The notes below the pieces were generated by a model. It saw only the letters and a program-made list of their open reading frames with translations. It did no database searches and was not told the origin of the DNA. From Octopus vulgaris (lineage: Eukaryota), in contig OX597815.1 in the NCBI GenBank assembly GCA_951406725.2, positions 200,508,001 through 200,572,000 of the forward strand: a stretch of DNA of 64,000 nt. The letters are read 5' to 3'. Position numbers and translations under genes: made by a program. Positions 4,165 through 62,320 of the stretch are shown here, piece after piece. How positions within the stretch are numbered: the first letter of the stretch is position 1; every line of letters begins with the position of its first letter.

Positions 4165-4618
4165 TCAGAAATATTAAATTTCTAAATATCTCATAGAGAT
4201 ATGTACGGTGGTGGGGCGATAGAGTGGTTGTATACTGTCAACTTAACGTGACAGTCCTGTAAGGGAATTACACCACCACTGTTTAGCCCTAGGAAGCATC
4301 GACGCTTCCTGTCGGCCTTGACACATTTCCTGTGTCCTTATATATTTACGAAGGGGAGACAAACACCCCCACCAGCTAGGCCTGCATCTAGAAACACGCA
4401 TGTTTCAGTGACTTTGCCCATCATCGGTCTAAGACCCTGAAATATGCGTGTCTCTAGATGCAGGCTTAGCTCTTGGGGGTATTTGTCTCCCCTTCGTAAA
4501 TATATAAGGACACAGGAAATATGTCAAGGCCGACAGGAAGCGTCGATGCTTCCTAGGGCTAAACAGCGGTGGTGTAATTCCCTTACTGTCACGTTAAGTT
4601 GACAGTATACAACCACTA
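4165..4618. mobile_element. Fold-back (inverted) copy of the HHR-bearing retrozyme-like family R1
   Basis: Arms ~4222-4408 and ~4436-4617 are near-perfect reverse complements and match 28511-28896. Minus-strand HHR TAGA-CCGATGA-..-GAAAC-ATGCGT-GTT-TCTAGA at ~4387-4432. Confidence 0.85.
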
Positions 4619-4913
4619 TATGCACATAGTTCGTGTAGAACATGTCAAATACGTATTTGATTTTACTTGGGCAGAACCTCATCTAAAATTATTGCAAGAT
4701 AATCCTGGTAAATTCTTTCCAAAGCTAGTAGCATATGAACGAATTTGCTATGAGTCTACAGGTTTGAAACAGTAATTTTGATCTCTTGAGCTTTCTCAAG
4801 TAACCTTATCCTTCAGATGTAAATACCAGCACAAAAAAAACTGTGGGGGAAATGAAAACATCACGAATAAATTAGAGAGGTCCTTAATGTTTTTGATTTT
4901 CTTTTATGAAAGA

Positions 4914-11685: not shown

Positions 11686-11729
<44 letters not shown>

Positions 11730-11733
<4 letters not shown>

Positions 11734-12250
11734 GAAAGAATGGAGTTGAACGACGAATTAACAAAATTCCTTTATTCTCGACATATGTTTCGAAGGCTGC
11801 ATATTCCTAATTTCGAAGGAATAAGGGGTGCATTATGCCGCCTTCTCATCATGAAAAACAAGGAACGTATGTCAGCATCAAGATGCACAAAACTTATCGC
11901 TATGGTCTCCGTGTCGGCAGTCATCTAAAAGTTTTTGTGTATCTTGATACTGACATAAGTTCCTTGTTTTTCCTGATGAGAAGGCGCCATAATGCACCCC
12001 TTATTCCTTCGAAATTAGGAATATGCAGCCTTCGAAACATATGACGAGAATAAAGGAATTTTGTTAATTCGTCATTCAACTCCATTCTTTCATTTATTTG
12101 TATTTACAAAAACACACAAATTTCCACACGAAAGCACGTGATCTCTGCCCTAGACATGTAGCTTCAACCGTGTTTTTCTGACGTGAATTTGCTACCCAGG
12201 TATCGGTTAACCGAATTATCCATAATAAGATAATTCATTCAACTACTCAA
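11730..12250 (+). mobile_element. HHR-bearing TA-flanked element family R2 with inverted 5' arm
   Basis: 11730-11895 is the reverse complement of 11930-12096. The plus arm has TTTTC-CTGATGA-GAAGGC...GCCTTC-GAAAC-ATAT-GAC-GAGAA (11968-12050). Other copies at 39226 and 60836. Confidence 0.85.
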
Positions 12251-14632: not shown

Positions 14633-15032
14633 TAATCTTTCCTGCTATAATTACAAGGCCAGAAATTGTGAGGGAGGAGGTTAGTCAATTACATCGACCC
14701 CAGTGTGTAACTGGTACTTAATTTATCGACCCTGAAAGGATGAAAGGCAAAATCAACCTGGGTGGAATTTGAACTCGGAACGTAACGACGGGCGAAATAC
14801 CTATTTCTTTACTACCCACAAGGGGCTAAACATAGAGGGGACAAACAAGGACAGGCATAGGTATTAAGTCGATTACATCGACCCCAGTGCGGAAGTGGTA
14901 CTTAATTTATCGACCCCGAAAGGATGAAAGGCAAAGTCAACCTCGGCGGAATTTGAACTCACAACGTAACGACAGACGAAATACCGCTAAACATTTCCGC
15001 CGACGTGCTAACAATTCTGATAGCTCACCGTC
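14633..15032 (-). mobile_element. SINE family B (Nin-domain-like), internally duplicated
   Basis: Two tandem copies of GCCTTTCATCCTTTCGGGGTCGATAAATTAAGTACC on the minus strand, head GAGCT...GAATTGTTAGCACG. Another degenerate copy at 15285-15492. Confidence 0.85.
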
Positions 15033-22190: not shown

Positions 22191-22963
22191 GGTAAGAAAG
22201 TTGGTATGTGAAAGCACGTGGTTGAATATATAGAAAATAGTTAAAAGTGAAAAACTACAGAAGGTTGTTTTAAAAGGTTAAGAAATATATAGACCGAACT
22301 GTGCAACATGTCCAAACCTGCTAGAAGGATCAGAATTCCTCTTCAAAGAGGGACAGAAATTCAAGATCAAATCTAATTTTACTTGTGCCTCTGAAAACAT
22401 AATTTATGTCATAAAATGCTCGGGCTGCCACCAAGACTACGTGGGATCCACGGGACTATCACTCAGACGTAGATGCACACTGCATCGACAACAGATTGCA
22501 TTCCCAGAATACAGAATGATACCCTTTAGTGAGCACATTGAGAAATGCGCAAAGCAACTACTACCACAATTTTTAATCATTCCATTCTACCAATGTGCTA
22601 TCGGAACACCAACACAAATTAGACTAAACAAGGAAACATTCTTCATTGAAAAATACAAGCCCAAGCTTAACCATTCCAACATACTTATACAGAGAAACAC
22701 TATCCAAAAGAAAGGCAAAAAATTTTAAGCGATTTTCTCCCTTACACCGGAAGAAATCACTTATTATCTAGATCTCCGCTCAACGTAAACATAACGATTT
22801 AAGAAATTTGAAAAGCTGAACGCGAAACCGGTCATTTCTTCTAAACTATGTCATTGTATGAAAAAAATTTATAACATTCTTCAGACATATTGACTCAAAT
22901 ATATATCATTAACCTTTTAAAACAAGCCTTCTGTAGTTTTTTCACTTTTTACTATGTTATCTA

Positions 22964-32436: not shown

Positions 32437-33212
32437 CTTGTGGGTAGTAAACAACTAGGTATTTCGTCTGTCGCTACGTTCTGAGTTCAAATTCAACATA
32501 GGTCAACTTTGCCTTTCATCCTTTTGAGGTCGATTAAATAAGTACGGGTTACACACTGGGGTCGATATAATCGACTTAATCCGTTTGTCTTTCCTTGTTT
32601 GACCCCGGTATGTTTAGCCCCTTGTGGGTAGTAAAGGTACAGGTATTTCGCCTGCCGTTACGTTCTGAGATCAAATTACATCAATTACATCGACCCCAGT
32701 GCGTAACTGGTACTTATTTTAATCGACCCCGAAAGATGAAAGGCAAAGTCGACCTCAGCGGAATTTGAACTCAGAACGTAGCGACAGACGAAATACCTAG
32801 TTGTTTACTACCCACAAGGGGCTAAACACAGAATGGACAAAAAAGGAGAGACAAACGGACTAAGTCGATTATATCGACCCCAGTGTGTAACTGGTACTTA
32901 CTTAATCGACCCCGAAAGGATGAAAGGCAAAGTCGACCTCGGCGGAATTTGAACTAAGAACGTAGCGGCAGACGAAATACCTATTTCTTTACTACCCACA
33001 AGGGGCTAAACACAGAGAGGACAAACAAGGACAGACAAACGGATTAAGTCGATTATATCGACCCCAGTGCGTGACTGGTACTTACTTAATCGACCCCGAA
33101 AGGATGAAAGGCAAAGTCGACCTCGGCGGAATTTGAACTCAGAGCGTAGCGGCAGACGAAATACTGCTAAGCATTTCGCCCGGCGTGCTAGCGTTTCTGC
33201 CAGCTCACCGCC
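32437..33212. mobile_element. SINE family B array: plus-strand partial (32437-32681) joined to a minus-strand triple tandem (32682-33212)
   Basis: Three ~185-bp repeats of ATCGACCCCAGTG..GAAAGGCAAAGTCGACCTC..GAATTTGAACT; head GGCGGTGAGCTGGCAGAAACG at 33212. Confidence 0.9.
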
Positions 33213-34269
33213 CTTATAACGTAACAATACTGAAAAGTAATTGATGAGCTAATATCGGAAGCGTGCTGAAAGAATAATGAATTTTATCGATGAAATGGTT
33301 TAAACGAAATTGTCAAAAATATATACTAATACGTTTATATTCACTTTTTCATTACTACCTCAAAGAACTGTATTAAAAAAATCGGCATTTCTTTGATCTT
33401 TAGATGTTCTTTAAGATATTAGTGCGGATTTGTTAACCAAGAATAAGTATGTTAAACTTGAACACGAGAGTAAAGTTTGAACCTATTTGATAAACTTGAA
33501 AAGATTTTCGTCTTAAGTTTGCTTTTTGCGAAACACACGTGTGTTAACTATGAAAATTTATCCCATCAAGAATACAACAAATATGCAATCCGGCTGAGCA
33601 CAGCATAAGACTGCAGAATGTGTGCCAAATAAGACTCGAACTACTGTTTTGAACTTAAATAATTTTAGAACACACTGAGTTACGCACACTTATACTTATA
33701 GGTATATTCATACGTATATATACACACATGCATGCACACGTTTACAGGTATAAATATATGATGTATGGACGCAAATCTGTAGTTGTGTATAAAAATGATG
33801 TCAGCTAGTTGTACGTAAATTTGGTATCAAACTCTAATTTACTATCTGTATGCATGTATGTATGTATGGTGGAGACTGATATACGTTAACTCTTCCATGC
33901 ATACAAACATACGCACATGCACCTATACCCACACAGTTTGAAAATTGTCTCTGAGTTTCATCTGTCTGTCATGTTATCTTAGCGTTTATTTATACAGATA
34001 TATGAAGATGCCTGCCTTTCTGCTTGTGTGTGTAATTGAAATACAGGGAGAGAGGGAAATAGAGAGATAGAGAGAGAGAGAGCGATAGAAAGAGACAGAG
34101 AGAGCATTTATAGCATCTATATTTAATGATATATGAGTCTTTAACTACATATTATCTATAAATTCCTACACAACGACCAACACTCATTCACAAACAGGTA
34201 TGTATGATTAGTATCAATGAATAAATAATTCATACTTCTACGCGTACACACGTTTGTAATATACATCTG

Positions 34270-38117: not shown

Positions 38118-38295
38118 TTCTATTTTATCTAATTTCAGCTCACGAGCTGTGGCCATGCTGGGGCACCGCCATTGGAATGCTCACAGCACCTAGGTTTCCC
38201 AAGTGGTCACCCATTTAAGTACTAACTAGGCTCGATGTTGCTTAACTTCGGTGATCGGACGAGAACCAGTGCTTTCAACGTGATATGGCCTAAGC
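38118..38295 (-). mobile_element. 5S rRNA-derived SINE3-like retrocopy (5S part 38177-38295 + LINE-type tail)
   Basis: Minus: GCTTAGGCCATATCACGTTGAAAGCACTGGTTCTCGTCCGATCACCGAAGTTAAGCAACATCGAGCCTAGTTAGTACTTAAATGGGTGACCACTTGGGAAACCTAGGTGCTGTGAGCAT, then GGCGGTGCCCCAGCATGGCCACAGCTCGTGAGCTGAAA. Confidence 0.9.
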
Positions 38296-39102: not shown

Positions 39103-39569
<467 letters not shown>

Positions 39570-44809: not shown

Positions 44810-44949
44810 TAGCTTGCTAACCAACCACATGGTTCCGGGTTCAGTCCCACTGCGTGGCACCTTGGCCAAGTCTCTTCTAGTATAGCCGCGGGCTGACCGA
44901 TGCCTTGTGAGTGGATTTGGTAGACGGAAACCGAAAGAAGACTGTCGTA

Positions 44950-44996
<47 letters not shown>

Positions 44997-45198
44997 ATGT
45001 GTTTGTCCCCCTAGCATTGCTTGACAACTGATGCTGGTGTGTTTATGTCCCCGTTACTTAGCGGTTCGGCAAAAGAGACCGATAGAATAAGTACTGGGCT
45101 TACAAAAGAATAAGTCCCGGGGTCGAGTTGCTCGACTAAAGGCGGTGCTCCAGCATGGCCGCAGTCAAAAGACTGAAACAAGTAAAAGAGTAAAAGAG
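44810..45198 (+). mobile_element. SINE family A, slightly 5'-truncated
   Basis: Matches 27570-27950. Confidence 0.9.
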
Positions 45199-45229
45199 TT
45201 AAAAACATATACGGTACAACATTGTTTTC

Positions 45230-45526
45230 GTGGAGGCACCTGGCCTAGTGCTTAGAGCAGCGGATTCCCGGCCGAGAGATCTCGGGTTCGAATCTCAGAC
45301 CGGGCGATGTATGTGTTTATGAGCGAAACACCTAAGTTCCACGCGATTTTGACAGAAGGTAATGGCGTACTTCTGCTGAATCTTTCGCCACCACTTTCTC
45401 TCTTTCCTTTTGCATCTAGGTACTTACCTGGGACAGACGCCCGTCCCGTCCAGGTGGAGAACCTATACGCCAATGTAACTGGGAAACTGGCCCTTGTGAG
45501 CCAGGCATGGCTCGAGAAGGAACAAA
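45230..45526 (+). mobile_element. tRNA-derived SINE family C, full length
   Basis: A box TGGCCTAGTG, B box GGTTCGAATCTC, tail CCCGTCCAGG..GAAACTGGCCCTTGTGAGCCAGGCATGGCTCGAG. Confidence 0.8.
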
Positions 45527-45639
45527 ACTCAAAAGCATACAGTTTCTACTTCGCTGACTTACTCCTATCGCGGAGGGTTTTCGAACGTAACGCCCACTAT
45601 AGAGGAGGGGATTACTATATATTTATATGTGTGTGTGTG

Positions 45640-45675
<36 letters not shown>

Positions 45676-45677
<2 letters not shown>

Positions 45678-46290
45678 AAAGTTAATTAATTGGGGTAAAC
45701 ATTTATATTATTGATTAATATGGCTAGTATACATAAAAAATTCCAAAGATTATAAATTATATCCTATATAGATAAATAACAGGAATAGCCTCCAAGGTTG
45801 ATTCCTAAAATGCTAGACGACACAGAATCGCCTTACCACGAAGAATATGTTCTCAAAAATTTTAGCAAGTGTCAGAATGTATGCGAACAAGACGAAGGAA
45901 AGGTGATTAAATAGAGCAATTAATTCCATCTCTTAAGTTTTCGCTATGAAGGATCTCTAACTTGATCATCCGTAGCTCTTCAGTGAAGTCATTCCAGGAC
46001 ACATAATCCGCGGAACTAGATACAAAGCGTCCTCGCGACAGAGAACATGCGCGGATTATGTGCCTTGGAAAGACTTCACGGAAGAGCTACGGATGATCAC
46101 GTTAGCGATCGTTGACACTGAAATCTTAAGGTATAGAGTTAATTCGTCTATTTTGTCTCCTTTCATTTGTCTTGCTCGCATACATTCTGGCGTTTGCTAG
46201 AACATTTGAGAACATATTCTTCAAGGTAAGGCGATTCTGCGTCTTCTTCTAGCATATTAGGAATTCGCCTTGGTGGCTATTCCTCTTATA
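45676..46290. repeat. TA-flanked element forming a ~510-nt imperfect rod-like hairpin
   Basis: 45776-46011 pairs with 46051-46290; about 40 mismatches and one 3-nt indel by manual alignment. Confidence 0.9.
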
Positions 46291-46309
46291 TATATATATA
46301 TATAGATAT

Positions 46310-46355
<46 letters not shown>

Positions 46356-47194: not shown

Positions 47195-48870
47195 AATTTT
47201 TAATGTTAGGACATCTATTGTGTTTACAATAGATTTGTGTTCGATAACCACAGCAAACATTAGTGAAACAGGGATTTCCGATACGCAATCGCTTACGTTT
47301 CTTCTGTACGGCTACGGGGTTTATACCCCCTATGGTCGGCTTGGATTAAATGGCATCACAGTGCTTTTTCGGAAAGGCCTTGACTTGGAGGTGAATACTG
47401 CCTTGCTCGACTCGGTCAGTAAGATGGTCGTCTTGGACGTAAGCAGCAAAGAAGGCAAGAGTGGGGTTTTCAGACTAGTGACAGCCTATGCTCGAACAGG
47501 AGCTGGACGGCCAGATTTCTTTAGACGTCTAGAGATTTCCTTGGGACATCTCGCTGATTAGTATTATTGGGCGACTGGAATTGCTTCTTAGACACAATCA
47601 AGGATTATGCAGCAACAGCGGATAAGAGGGTCGGGTGCAAAATACTCGCTAACTTCTTCTGGCATTTCCAACTGTATGAAAGGCTACGCTTCGATCACCG
47701 AAATGTACCAATGTGGACGTGGTCAAATCACCGTGGGTGATTCAGATATGGTTTTTATTAGGCCAGCACGCAGGTAGAGTATAATTTGCTCGCATTTTCG
47801 GATTGTTAGGTATTCAGATAATAAACTCAGGACCTTTACAATCAACTTAGGAAAAAGAATCAGACATCGACCTGGTTACTGGAAGATGAACGCGTCCCTC
47901 CCGCCGGCTCGAAAATATTTTAGGGACCAGATTAGTTGTTTACTTAAACAGGAATTGACGGGAGCCATTATCAGCAACAGGTTGTGGGCCTCCTGAAAAA
48001 CGAAATTCAGAAAGGTGTCAGTTAATTTTAGCAGAGAGATTGCTTTAGAAAACAACAGAATAGAAAACAAACTAGTTAGTAACTTAGGAGAAGTACACAA
48101 AAGTGGGACTGTAAATGACGTGCTAGCGGCGAGAATGGCACTGGACTATTTCTTCGATGTAAAACATGAAGGCTGTATTTTCCCAGCTAAGATGCGTGCC
48201 ATGAAACACGAAGCTTCAAAACTCATTGGTTGGTCACGGGTAGTGGAGGCCCAGAATGGAAAAAATCTAGGGTTCACCCTATGACGGACCGCAGTGGCCA
48301 TGTGCACACCGATTCCAAACAGAGGAGCACAGTGTTTCGGTAGTATTTCACCGACCTCTTTTCGAGGAGTGGCATTTTAGTCCCAACGAGCTTTGAGGCT
48401 TATCTCGTGGGTATGCTGCGCCTCTAGGAGAAGAATATCGAGTGCTGCGAGAAGCCGATTGCAGTGGAGGAAGATATCCTGGGGAGCAAGTCACCAGGAT
48501 TAGATTGTCCGCCCTATGAACTATAAGCCAACATGTCCCAGTTATTTGCGCCGGTTTTAGCAGTTGTCTACTTCTCCTAGCGACAAACAGGAAGCATTCC
48601 CAGTCGTTTGAGCCGGTGAGTGGTGATAATGTTGAGAAAAGATCTAAACAAGGAGGATGTGATTGAAAACTTCAGGCCCTTAACTCTACTCAACATTGAG
48701 TTAAAGATTTTAGCTAGGGTACTCGCCAAGAGGCTGGCGCTTGTTATCAGTAATATAGTCGAGGATGCACAAACCTGTGCGATTCCCGGTAGATCTATCC
48801 ACTACAATCTTCACTTCATGCGATACACCGTAGAACGGGCAGGGAATAGATCGGGCTTTGGAGGAATAGA
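47195..48870 (+). pseudogene. Tx1/L1-clade LINE ORF2 remnant (APE endonuclease + N-half of RT)
   Basis: ISETG, GITVLFRK, LVTAYA, LLGDWNC.LD, GYWKMNASL, KSPGLD.P.YELY, ENFRPLTLLNIELKILARVLAKRL, QTCAIPGRSIHYNL; many stops and frameshifts. Confidence 0.9.
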
Positions 48871-49204
48871 TCTGGTCAAGTTGGACGACTCCTGGTATTT
48901 TTGTTATGCATTTGTCTGAATGTTTTTTATCATATCTAATGTACCTACTATGATAGGAATTGTTTCTGTTTTTAGGCTCCACATTCGAATTACCTATAAC
49001 AATCTATGGAGTAGGAGTGATTTACTTTAGGGACGGTAAATGGAGGCAAACTGTAGCAGAAGTTTAGCCGGTTGTATTTCTATCAAAATAAAACTGCAAG
49101 TGTTCTGTGTTTTGAGAATCCCTGGAGCCGATCTGTTGTTTCTCTCTCTCTCTCTTTCTCTTTGTATATATTGATACATCTATCTATCTATCTATCTATC
49201 TATA

Positions 49205-60835: not shown

Positions 60836-60952
60836 GGAGGCATAATGCACCCCTTATTCCTTCAAAATTAGGAATATGCAGCCTTGGAAACATGTCGAGA
60901 ATAAAGGAATTTTGTTAATTCGTCGTTCAACTCCATTCTTTCATTTATTTTT
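60836..60952 (+). mobile_element. Family R2 partial copy (3' half of HHR) ending at (TA)n
   Basis: Matches 11988-12098; has GAAACATGTCGAGAA. Confidence 0.8.
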
Positions 60953-60958
60953 ATATAT

Positions 60959-61018
<60 letters not shown>

Positions 61019-61020
<2 letters not shown>

Positions 61021-62320
61021 TCCAAACACACACGATCATAAAAGGCAAGAGGCAGCCAAAATCTATGAAAAGTCTCTTAACACAAGCCCGAATACACTCT
61101 TCAACACAGAAGCCGACAGTAAAAAATGTGGAAGACCCAATTGCGGGATATGCGATTATCTAATTGAGGGATCAGAGTTCTCCTTCAAACAGGGACAACG
61201 GTTTACAGTGAAAAGCAACTTCACATGTGCTTCGGAGAACCTAATATACACACTAACCTGCTCTGGGTGTCAAGAGCAGTACATAGGCCAAACAAAAAAT
61301 AGTTTGCGCAAAAGAATGGCCCTGCACAGATCCCAGATAAGAATTCCCCAAAACAGAAAAATAGCTTCCAGCCAACACATAGATACTTGCGCCAACAACA
61401 AAACACCAGGCTTCAGGATTTCCCCCCTCTACCAATTTAGGGACGATACAACCTCGAGACAACGAATAAGTAAAGAAACTCTCTTTATTACAAAATACAG
61501 ACCACTTCTTAACGGGTCTACGACAAACGATTAATACACCTCAGCTTTAGAATAACAGAAATACACACGCAAATATTACATTCCAAAGAATCCATTACAA
61601 ATCAGTCCCAATCACAGCTATAATCCATAACGTGCCAACTTCAAGTCATACAACACCTCACTACTTCCACTCATTCATATTCTCCCTTCTCTTTTTTCTT
61701 CTTCTTCCTCTTCTTCTTCATCATCATCATTATCATCATCATCATCGTCATCATCATCACCATCATCATCATCTTCTCCTTCTCCTTCTCCTTCTTCTTC
61801 TTCTTCATCATCATCATCATCATCAACATCGTCATCTTCTTCTTCTTCTTCTTCGTCTTCTTCTTCTTCTTCTTCTTCTTCTCCTGCTCCACCTTCTACT
61901 TCAACTTTATCACTAATGCTTTTTAGTTTAACTCCTACGCAAATTCCATAAAGAAACCTTTCAATAGAAATATTCTCCTGCTAGCCGTCGCTGACCATTC
62001 AAAATACGACAATCAAGGCACTCCCAAATTTTTCCACCCCTTCCCCTAATCAACCTTCTTCTTCTTCTACCCTACCAAGAATTCACAACGACCTCGAACA
62101 CACAAGTAACAAGAGAGACACAGAAAGGGAGAAACAAGAAAAATGCCACTTATATTTGAACACTATACAAATATTCCTTTAAAAAAACTTTTCTTTTAAT
62201 TTTTCTAAATTTAATTATTTAATCGTTACATTTGAAAAGGTCTCAAAATGACCGAAACCGGTACTGAAATATTCTTTATAAAATTATTTTAGCATTTTCT
62301 ATCTTGACTTGTTTTTTCAT
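61019..62320 (+). mobile_element. 5'-truncated PLE (Neptune-like): linker, Zn-knuckle, GIY-YIG (to 61534), UTR, U3-A8 HHR motif (62225-62270)
   Basis: KRQPKSMKSLLTQA/KCGRPNCGICDYL..KSNFTCASENLIYTLTCSGCQEQYIGQTKNSLRKRMALHRSQI..KETLFITKYRPLLN. TTGAAAA-GGTC tcaaaat GACC-GAAAC-CG-GTA. (TA)n on both sides. Confidence 0.9.

Follow-up and report, generated by a model that had tools for sequence, protein, structure and literature searches.

A rod-forming pair of inverted repeat copies with hammerhead remnants in Octopus vulgaris, probably a product of Penelope-type insertion

Metazoan non-LTR retrozymes are described by Cervera and de la Pena 2020 (PMC7229834) as non-coding, low-GC repeats of ~170-400 nt that are arranged head to tail, contain type I hammerhead ribozymes and coexist with autonomous Penelope-like elements. 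Where stem III is short and has a palindromic loop, as in metazoan hammerheads, the ribozyme has been described as working in dimers (PMC4209133), and Li, Clavereau and Pollet 2026 (bioRxiv 10.64898/2026.07.22.740005) argue that animal retrozymes are non-autonomous Penelope derivatives. Insertions of Penelope-like elements are described as truncated at the 5′ end, accompanied by an inverted copy next to them and often tailed at one end only (PMC8557442). For a Penelope protein, cleavage of AT-rich DNA and extension of both strands are described, with synthesis beginning at two sites that delimit the tail; in the in vitro account, the two DNA strands do not differ in their reverse transcription (RT) start site (PMC11167929). 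In a literature search of incomplete coverage, neither an octopus retrozyme nor twin priming by Penelope elements was found described.

In this study, we analyzed a 64,000-nt stretch of the O. vulgaris genome (contig OX597815.1, positions 200,508,001 to 200,572,000, forward strand; hereafter the window), in which a preliminary description had pointed out an imperfect rod with hammerhead remnants of opposite polarity. The rod very probably consists of two 5′-truncated copies of an old retrozyme-like repeat that lie back-to-back within a TA microsatellite. The two copies were likely placed there by a single Penelope-type insertion and have decayed largely independently thereafter, both ribozymes being predicted dead.

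The repeat family resembles the metazoan retrozymes in having low-GC, non-coding units that follow one another head to tail and contain a type I hammerhead, in its coexistence with autonomous Penelope-like elements (PMC7229834), and in a short stem III with a palindromic loop (PMC4209133). However, its unit of ~500-515 nt is above the published range, stem II is long (13 pairs around an internal loop), and the copies are mostly truncated, ~11% diverged and at most partial dimers in the loci seen. The window locus differs further in being two inverted partial copies with damaged ribozymes, known from DNA alone. It does not contain two consecutive units with complete hammerheads, by which Li et al. 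define 'active' retrozymes. Like endonuclease-positive Penelope insertions, the locus is 5′-truncated, has an inverted copy at its 5′ end and a tail at one end only (PMC8557442), and the TA-rich target, the two fixed 3′ termini and the hammerhead upstream of the termini are further features in common with such insertions (PMC8557442; mechanism in PMC11167929). The tail is ~100 nt long, compared with the published 30-40 bp of Penelope, and, in contrast to autonomous Penelope-like elements, the repeat unit has no RT or GIY-YIG frame. Finally, the rod fold, the similar size and the motifs in both polarities recall the viroid-like circular RNAs with ambisense hammerheads (PMC10162972); unlike in those RNAs, the window rod is not the repeated unit, and its ribozymes are decayed duplicates of one sequence.

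The repeat family and its hammerhead motif

With the rod as query, the 2.8-Gb animal genome gave at least 95 matches of 68-94% identity, the window itself excluded (40 of 1415 candidates scored). Further similarity searches and fetched stretches yielded the 66 distinct loci analyzed here, which were chosen by similarity and are not a random sample. Profile matches below 25 bits were ignored in the analyses of locus architecture and unit junctions. An exact 24-letter motif of the family occurs 15 times in the genome; together with a decay of 8-11% per site, this would correspond, very roughly, to ~100-300 arms. The 75 arms of 120 or more columns deviate from the column majority by 5-22% (median 12.9%), and no young copy was seen among them. 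By 13 diagnostic columns, 85 arms were sorted into subfamilies A (43) and B (20), with 22 unclassified. Both window arms belong to subfamily A, the copies of which are mostly truncated, and each of the 12 loci where at least two arms could be classified has a single subfamily. Loci L045 and L053 lie ~20 kb apart on opposite strands (G000 C22), differ at 11 of 302 columns and have 20 rare changes in common; they are a recent local inverted duplication at the DNA level. The duplicate L053 was therefore omitted from the matched controls, the core and A>G counts, and the covariation, subfamily-A and folding analyses.

Family copies stop at two fixed 3′ points ~100 nt apart, a proximal end S (profile ~411) and a distal end T (~516). 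At 10 of the 66 loci, two of which represent one recent duplicate, the T end runs directly into the start of the next unit, and the unit period is 496-516 nt in L076, L036 and L075. The longest ATG frame in six natural units has 61 aa. Judged from these junctions, the period and the short frames, the unit is a ~500-nt non-coding, head-to-tail tandem repeat of retrozyme-like character. The tandem junction is absent at the window locus itself. Folded as circles in the sense strand, five of the six natural units were more stable than their shuffled versions (z = -2.5 to -4.1; 15 shuffles each), and the sixth had z = -0.6.

Column counts of the family yielded a type I hammerhead motif, in which stem I (7+4 pairs) is followed by CUGAAGA, a long stem II with an internal loop, GAAA, a stem III of three pairs closed by a palindromic UUAA loop, and GUA. 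The core columns are more conserved than their neighbours (509/550 vs 3649/4320 letters), and the core is intact in 21 of 49 arms. Covariation was evaluated on 31 of the 45 arms that span the motif, taken from both subfamilies; those omitted are mainly arms with indels. In this set, 87.8% of the cells are paired, and 35 two-sided changes, which occur in three helices, were counted against 12.3 after shuffling; none of 500 shuffles was as high, a count that does not amount to a probability since the covariation stems mostly from the difference between the two subfamilies and from related copies. Ten mostly subfamily-A copies gave no covariation signal. These compensatory changes support the predicted hammerhead of the monomer. 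Rfam returned no hammerhead among its seven matches at the locus, nor among the 150 of 205 window matches listed, and the assignment is thus based on our own alignments.

Layout of the locus and of the two hammerhead remnants

The locus is bordered at both ends by TA runs, as are most of the family ends displayed. The left-flank TA/TG microsatellite (45616-45675) is the likely insertion target. It adjoins the long arm on the minus strand (45676-46050; profile 120-516, score 348), a 5′-truncated copy of the ~500-nt repeat that ends at T near 45676. At the inversion junction (46050), one base is common to the two arms and nothing is inserted. The short arm on the plus strand (46050-46289), also 5′-truncated, ends at S near 46289, as indicated by the profile and the 3′-end comparison, and is followed by the right-flank TA/TAGA microsatellite (46290-46351). 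The ~100 nt between the S and T ends (45676-45775, minus strand) form a 'tail' that belongs to the long arm only and is unpaired in the rod. In the 3′-end comparison, the same extension was found in L002, L005, L010, L011, L017 and L022. The limits first proposed, 45776-46290, are too narrow for the element; the left arm continues unpaired to ~45676, so those coordinates miss the tail. Just left of the element lie two very abundant SINE-like repeats (44820-45200 and 45230-45560) with very high contig depth, and the same repeats interrupt several copies of the family (L006, L010).

In the rod, 45772-46012 pairs with 46050-46293 through 200 Watson-Crick pairs, with 41 mismatches and one 3-nt indel. 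The preliminary description of ~235-nt arms with about 40 mismatches, roughly half of them transversions, and one indel is thus confirmed; the mismatches comprise 22 of transversion type, 12 G.U (plus strand) and 7 A.C. The 37-nt loop (46013-46049) is the surplus 5′ sequence of the long arm, absent from the short arm, and on the minus strand all of it aligns with the family. The rod region folds at -310 kcal/mol (z = -27.6), and none of 100 shuffles was equally stable.

Two other fold-backs in the window, at 4222 and 11730, had been called near-perfect; measured from 4219 and 11719, each is ~90% matched. The element at 11720-12250 belongs to a second, younger hammerhead family of the same layout, with more copies near 39205-39427 and 60836-60930. 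It has an CUGAUGAG...GAAA motif at 11973 and a minimal stem III, and one of its arms stops at a TA run while the other is ~150 nt longer. The fold-back at 4219-4621 has neither flanking TA runs nor, in the motif scan, a hammerhead core, and it is probably an element of another kind. At 32437-33220, yet another abundant repeat is present as nested inverted copies, and this repeat also occurs at 14794, 42689, 44391, 53614 and 60047. A full-length 5S rRNA match (38178-38295, minus strand, 95 bits) could be a gene, a pseudogene or a SINE head. ARAGORN found no genes in the window.

The left hammerhead remnant (45916-45995, minus strand) reads CUGAAGA at 45983-45977 and GAAA at 45942-45939. Its core is intact and 20 of 27 pairs are kept, but the cleavage triplet, which reads AGA, and the A15.1-U16.1 pair are lost. 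The right remnant (46067-46146, plus strand) reads CGGAAGA at 46079-46085 and GAAA at 46120-46123, and retains the triplet GUA at 46131-46133 and 22 of 27 pairs. Its core U4 is changed to G, where 50 of 51 other arms have U, and two of four pairs in the base of stem II and one stem I pair are broken. These letters are exactly those of the preliminary description, which had recognized the lost triplet beside the kept core on the left and the altered core beside the intact triplet on the right, but had overlooked the loss in the base of stem II. Both remnants are predicted to be inactive. In free folding, neither adopts the hammerhead fold; the natural copy L021 nearly does so (-19.8 vs -23.9 kcal/mol). 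The two ribozymes had also been said to face each other. They are indeed apposed in the folded rod, but along the DNA both point outward from the centre, that is, they lie back-to-back.

The back-to-back layout was found at 32 of the 66 loci, the window included. The ends of these loci are S+T in 22 cases, S+S or T+T in none, and unresolved in 10; all 22 loci with two resolved ends therefore combine one short and one long end. Among the 10 unresolved loci, seven have one arm cut by another insertion and three end between S and T. L010, scored as cut owing to a stray match, is S+T on inspection, and L158 is an additional S+T case. The inner starts of the arms differ from locus to locus, and the inner junctions are scattered across the whole unit. 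The junction of the window rod is unique among the 66 loci and falls in an internal stem-loop of the unit.

In subfamily A, a hydrophobic frame of 38-39 codons begins at the predicted cleavage site; in the window it occupies 45816-45929 (minus strand) and 46133-46249 (plus strand). It is open for 35 or more codons from ATG in 18 of 44 arms. In subfamily B, the amino acids differ and the frame is often shorter. A genome search with the 39-codon peptide gave 92 matches, none in a frame longer than 124 aa, and a comparison with the Atlas gave no usable match. We do not claim the frame as a gene because it has no long-ORF relative and is divergent and often shorter in subfamily B. It may be the relic of an ORF start or a mere effect of base composition. 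In the autonomous element of L162, too, a hydrophobic, T-rich frame start lies across the two 3′ ends.

A relic ORF start at the cleavage site is what might be expected if the arms were pLTR 3′ ends of an extinct autonomous Penelope-like element. However, the sequence upstream of the copies is the tail of the previous unit (10 of 66 loci) and not coding sequence, and the short peptide leads to no long frame anywhere among its 92 genome matches. Alternatively, the second arm could have arisen within one cDNA synthesis by template switching or fold-back at the internal hairpin of the unit. The position of the window junction within that stem-loop agrees with this, and the prevalence of truncated copies in subfamily A suits both proposals. 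A single cDNA, however, would not yield different fixed 3′ ends on the two arms, as observed at every resolved locus, and junctions spread along the entire unit do not point to one hairpin. We consider it unlikely that the locus arose in either of these two ways. The original suggestion of an old inverted pLTR duplication survives in so far as an inverted duplication of Penelope type is concerned; the duplicated unit is a ~500-nt tandem non-coding repeat, retrozyme-like and not recognizably a coding element's pLTR.

Private decay and shared changes of the two arms

A maintained or viroid-like rod had been the other initial suggestion, with arm-to-arm mismatches fixed across the family as its expected mark. 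Neither the changes nor the junction of this rod recur in another genomic copy. The two arms have a common family majority and belong to a single subfamily, their mismatches are specific to this copy, and the junctions of other rods are different; this is the outcome that had been named beforehand as refuting a maintained rod. At 38 of the 40 mismatched columns in the aligned arms, one arm has the family majority and the other deviates. Relative to the subfamily A majority, 21 columns deviate in the left arm only, 16 in the right arm only and three in both, and 32 of the 37 single deviating letters occur in 10% or less of the other copies. Of the left-type changes, no other arm has more than 2 of 21, and of the right-type changes, no more than 4 of 14. 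The arms have diverged from the subfamily majority by 12.6% and 10.0%, around the median of 11.3% (42 arms). G.U and A.C mismatches (12 vs 7, p = 0.36) reveal no strand bias, the longest perfect run in the rod (19) does not exceed the random median (21), and the share of transitions is like that of the family. The 3-nt indel, also present in 16 of 67 other arms and different between the arms at several loci, is read as slippage in a TCT run. The private deviations, the lack of a G.U bias, the lack of a long protected duplex and the ordinary transition share together indicate that the mismatches are copy-specific decay and that the rod is not the replicating unit.

It is therefore extremely unlikely that the locus is an integrated viroid-like RNA that carried hammerheads in both polarities and replicated as a rod. 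Its length of ~515 nt, its rod fold and its apposed ribozymes of opposite polarity do resemble the published description of such RNAs (PMC10162972). However, the two ribozymes are copies of one sequence, each with private disabling changes, the rod junction occurs once in 66 loci, the element extends past the left end of the rod, and the tandem junctions of the family link same-strand monomers and never rods. Neither of the two defining properties, a rod that is itself the replicating unit and an intact ribozyme in each polarity, is apparent here, the former as judged from the 66 loci and the latter from the sequence. The locus is worn, probably ordinary genomic debris rather than a viroid-like RNA.

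The arms nevertheless have slightly more in common than two unrelated copies. Their mismatch of 16.9% is somewhat lower than the 19.4% in 54 matched controls, 19% of which are equally close, and three rare changes are common to both arms against 0.56 expected, a number reached by 1 of 54 controls. Six subfamily-A rods have 11 shared rare changes, compared with 3.6 expected (p = 0.001), and at polymorphic columns, arms of the same locus agree in 233 of 301 cases, compared with 170 expected. Over all copies, arms of one locus are closer to each other than expected (15.7% vs 20.1%, p = 0.007, 18 pairs); within subfamily A, this advantage shrinks (16.0% vs 19.0%, p = 0.22, 6 pairs). Most simply read, a single RNA variant was the template of both arms. 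The excess sharing would be explained by a shared template or by arm-to-arm gene conversion, and weak selection for pairing may also lie behind the shared rare changes.

Contigs from sequencing runs match the rod, and no matching run is on record as RNA. The run X1, which is RNA only by guess, contains a 109-nt exact contig of the right arm (46147-46255, depth 6); contigs of this kind reveal neither strand nor transcription. A contig of the run X2 crosses the junction (46019-46276, ~97% identity, seven differences, one gap), and the window locus thus seems to be present in another sample. Among the matches listed, X2 contigs depart from the left arm at positions 45818, 45824, 45870, 45897 and 45904, each time toward the family majority, and a gap-free 193-nt record with 12 differences would account for the distances to the end of the contig. 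This record is likely an orthologue without some of the private changes of the window, the alternative being a paralogue. A hint of later conversion between the arms comes from the shared change at 45824, which is seemingly missing in the X2 copy.

An ADAR signature was considered and rejected. The family-wide excess of sense A>G changes (p = 0.0002) vanishes in subfamily A, where A>G (87/2240) and T>C (125/3778) do not differ (p = 0.25), and none of the three shared rare changes is A>G. On this evidence, ADAR appears to have left no mark at the locus.

These observations also bear on a later co-option of the same insertion, by which it would be weakly maintained as a hairpin RNA, an endo-siRNA source or ADAR substrate that could, for example, silence its own family. 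The duplex would be very stable on either strand (-305 and -297 kcal/mol), the three rare changes found in both arms keep their pairs, and the locus seems to persist in a second sample, as judged from the X2 contig across the junction. However, some 40 mismatches remain unrepaired and randomly placed, without a G.U bias and with a neutral transition share, and the arms are as diverged as ordinary copies. The A>G changes expected of editing are missing both from the shared changes and, as an excess, from subfamily A. In addition, no host-gene family was recognized among the 72 of 129 window frames scanned, although short exons would escape such a scan. We regard co-option as a hairpin RNA as a minor possibility and quite improbable.

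Proposed insertion by a Penelope-type enzyme

The preferred reading, a Penelope-type insertion of two repeat copies followed by decay, can be formulated as follows. A Penelope-like RT/GIY-YIG protein, acting in trans, would nick both strands of a TA run, and from each nick the repeat RNA would be reverse-transcribed, beginning at a fixed site that differs between the two. Two incomplete cDNAs would then be joined by their 5′ ends. The template may have been a hammerhead-processed monomer or circle. The hairpin would be a by-product, and any read-through transcript would be a passive double-stranded RNA.

This genome is rich in RT+GIY-YIG elements, some of which have two 3′ ends in TA runs. Fragments with GIY-YIG similarity are present in the window at 60998-62320 (Pfam E 3.8e-5) and 22282-22725 (E 0.0019). 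The former is the 3′ part of a large, young Penelope-like family with an RT domain and, C-terminally, a GIY-YIG domain, the frames of which reach ~800-1000 aa. Among its 150 scored matches, many are near-identical and some are back-to-back; the family has two 3′ ends in TA runs and a long CTT/CAT repeat in its 3′ region. No hammerhead was found at its 3′ end. This was the one RT/GIY-YIG family examined for a helper with matching ends (30 loci and L162), and it has no sequence in common with the repeat; it therefore indicates only that such enzymes exist in the genome. With no such helper among these loci, the link to Penelope is drawn from the architecture of the insertions. The true helper of the repeat may be extinct. 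A separate reverse transcriptase fragment in the window (48620-48916; RVT_1, E 2e-6) probably belongs to a LINE.

More tentatively, and with slightly more doubt than confidence, we propose that a single asymmetric Penelope complex writes each two-armed insertion from one retrozyme RNA, probably circular, the two strands being primed ~100 nt apart to give one short and one long arm. Since the two strands would prime at two fixed sites, every event would pair a short with a long arm of the same RNA variant. If true, this is stricter than the in vitro picture, in which both strands use the same start sites (PMC11167929).

The locus illustrates how a viroid-like rod with ribozymes in both polarities can arise as a by-product of retrotransposition, and such structures are a trap for genome and transcriptome scans. 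The family provides an old, independent case of the rule of one short arm plus one long arm, which held at 22 of 22 resolved loci and bears on how Penelope-like elements finish integration and mobilize retrozymes. If the asymmetric complex is real, rods of this kind would preserve past Penelope integrations like fossils and would steadily supply the genome with long hairpins.
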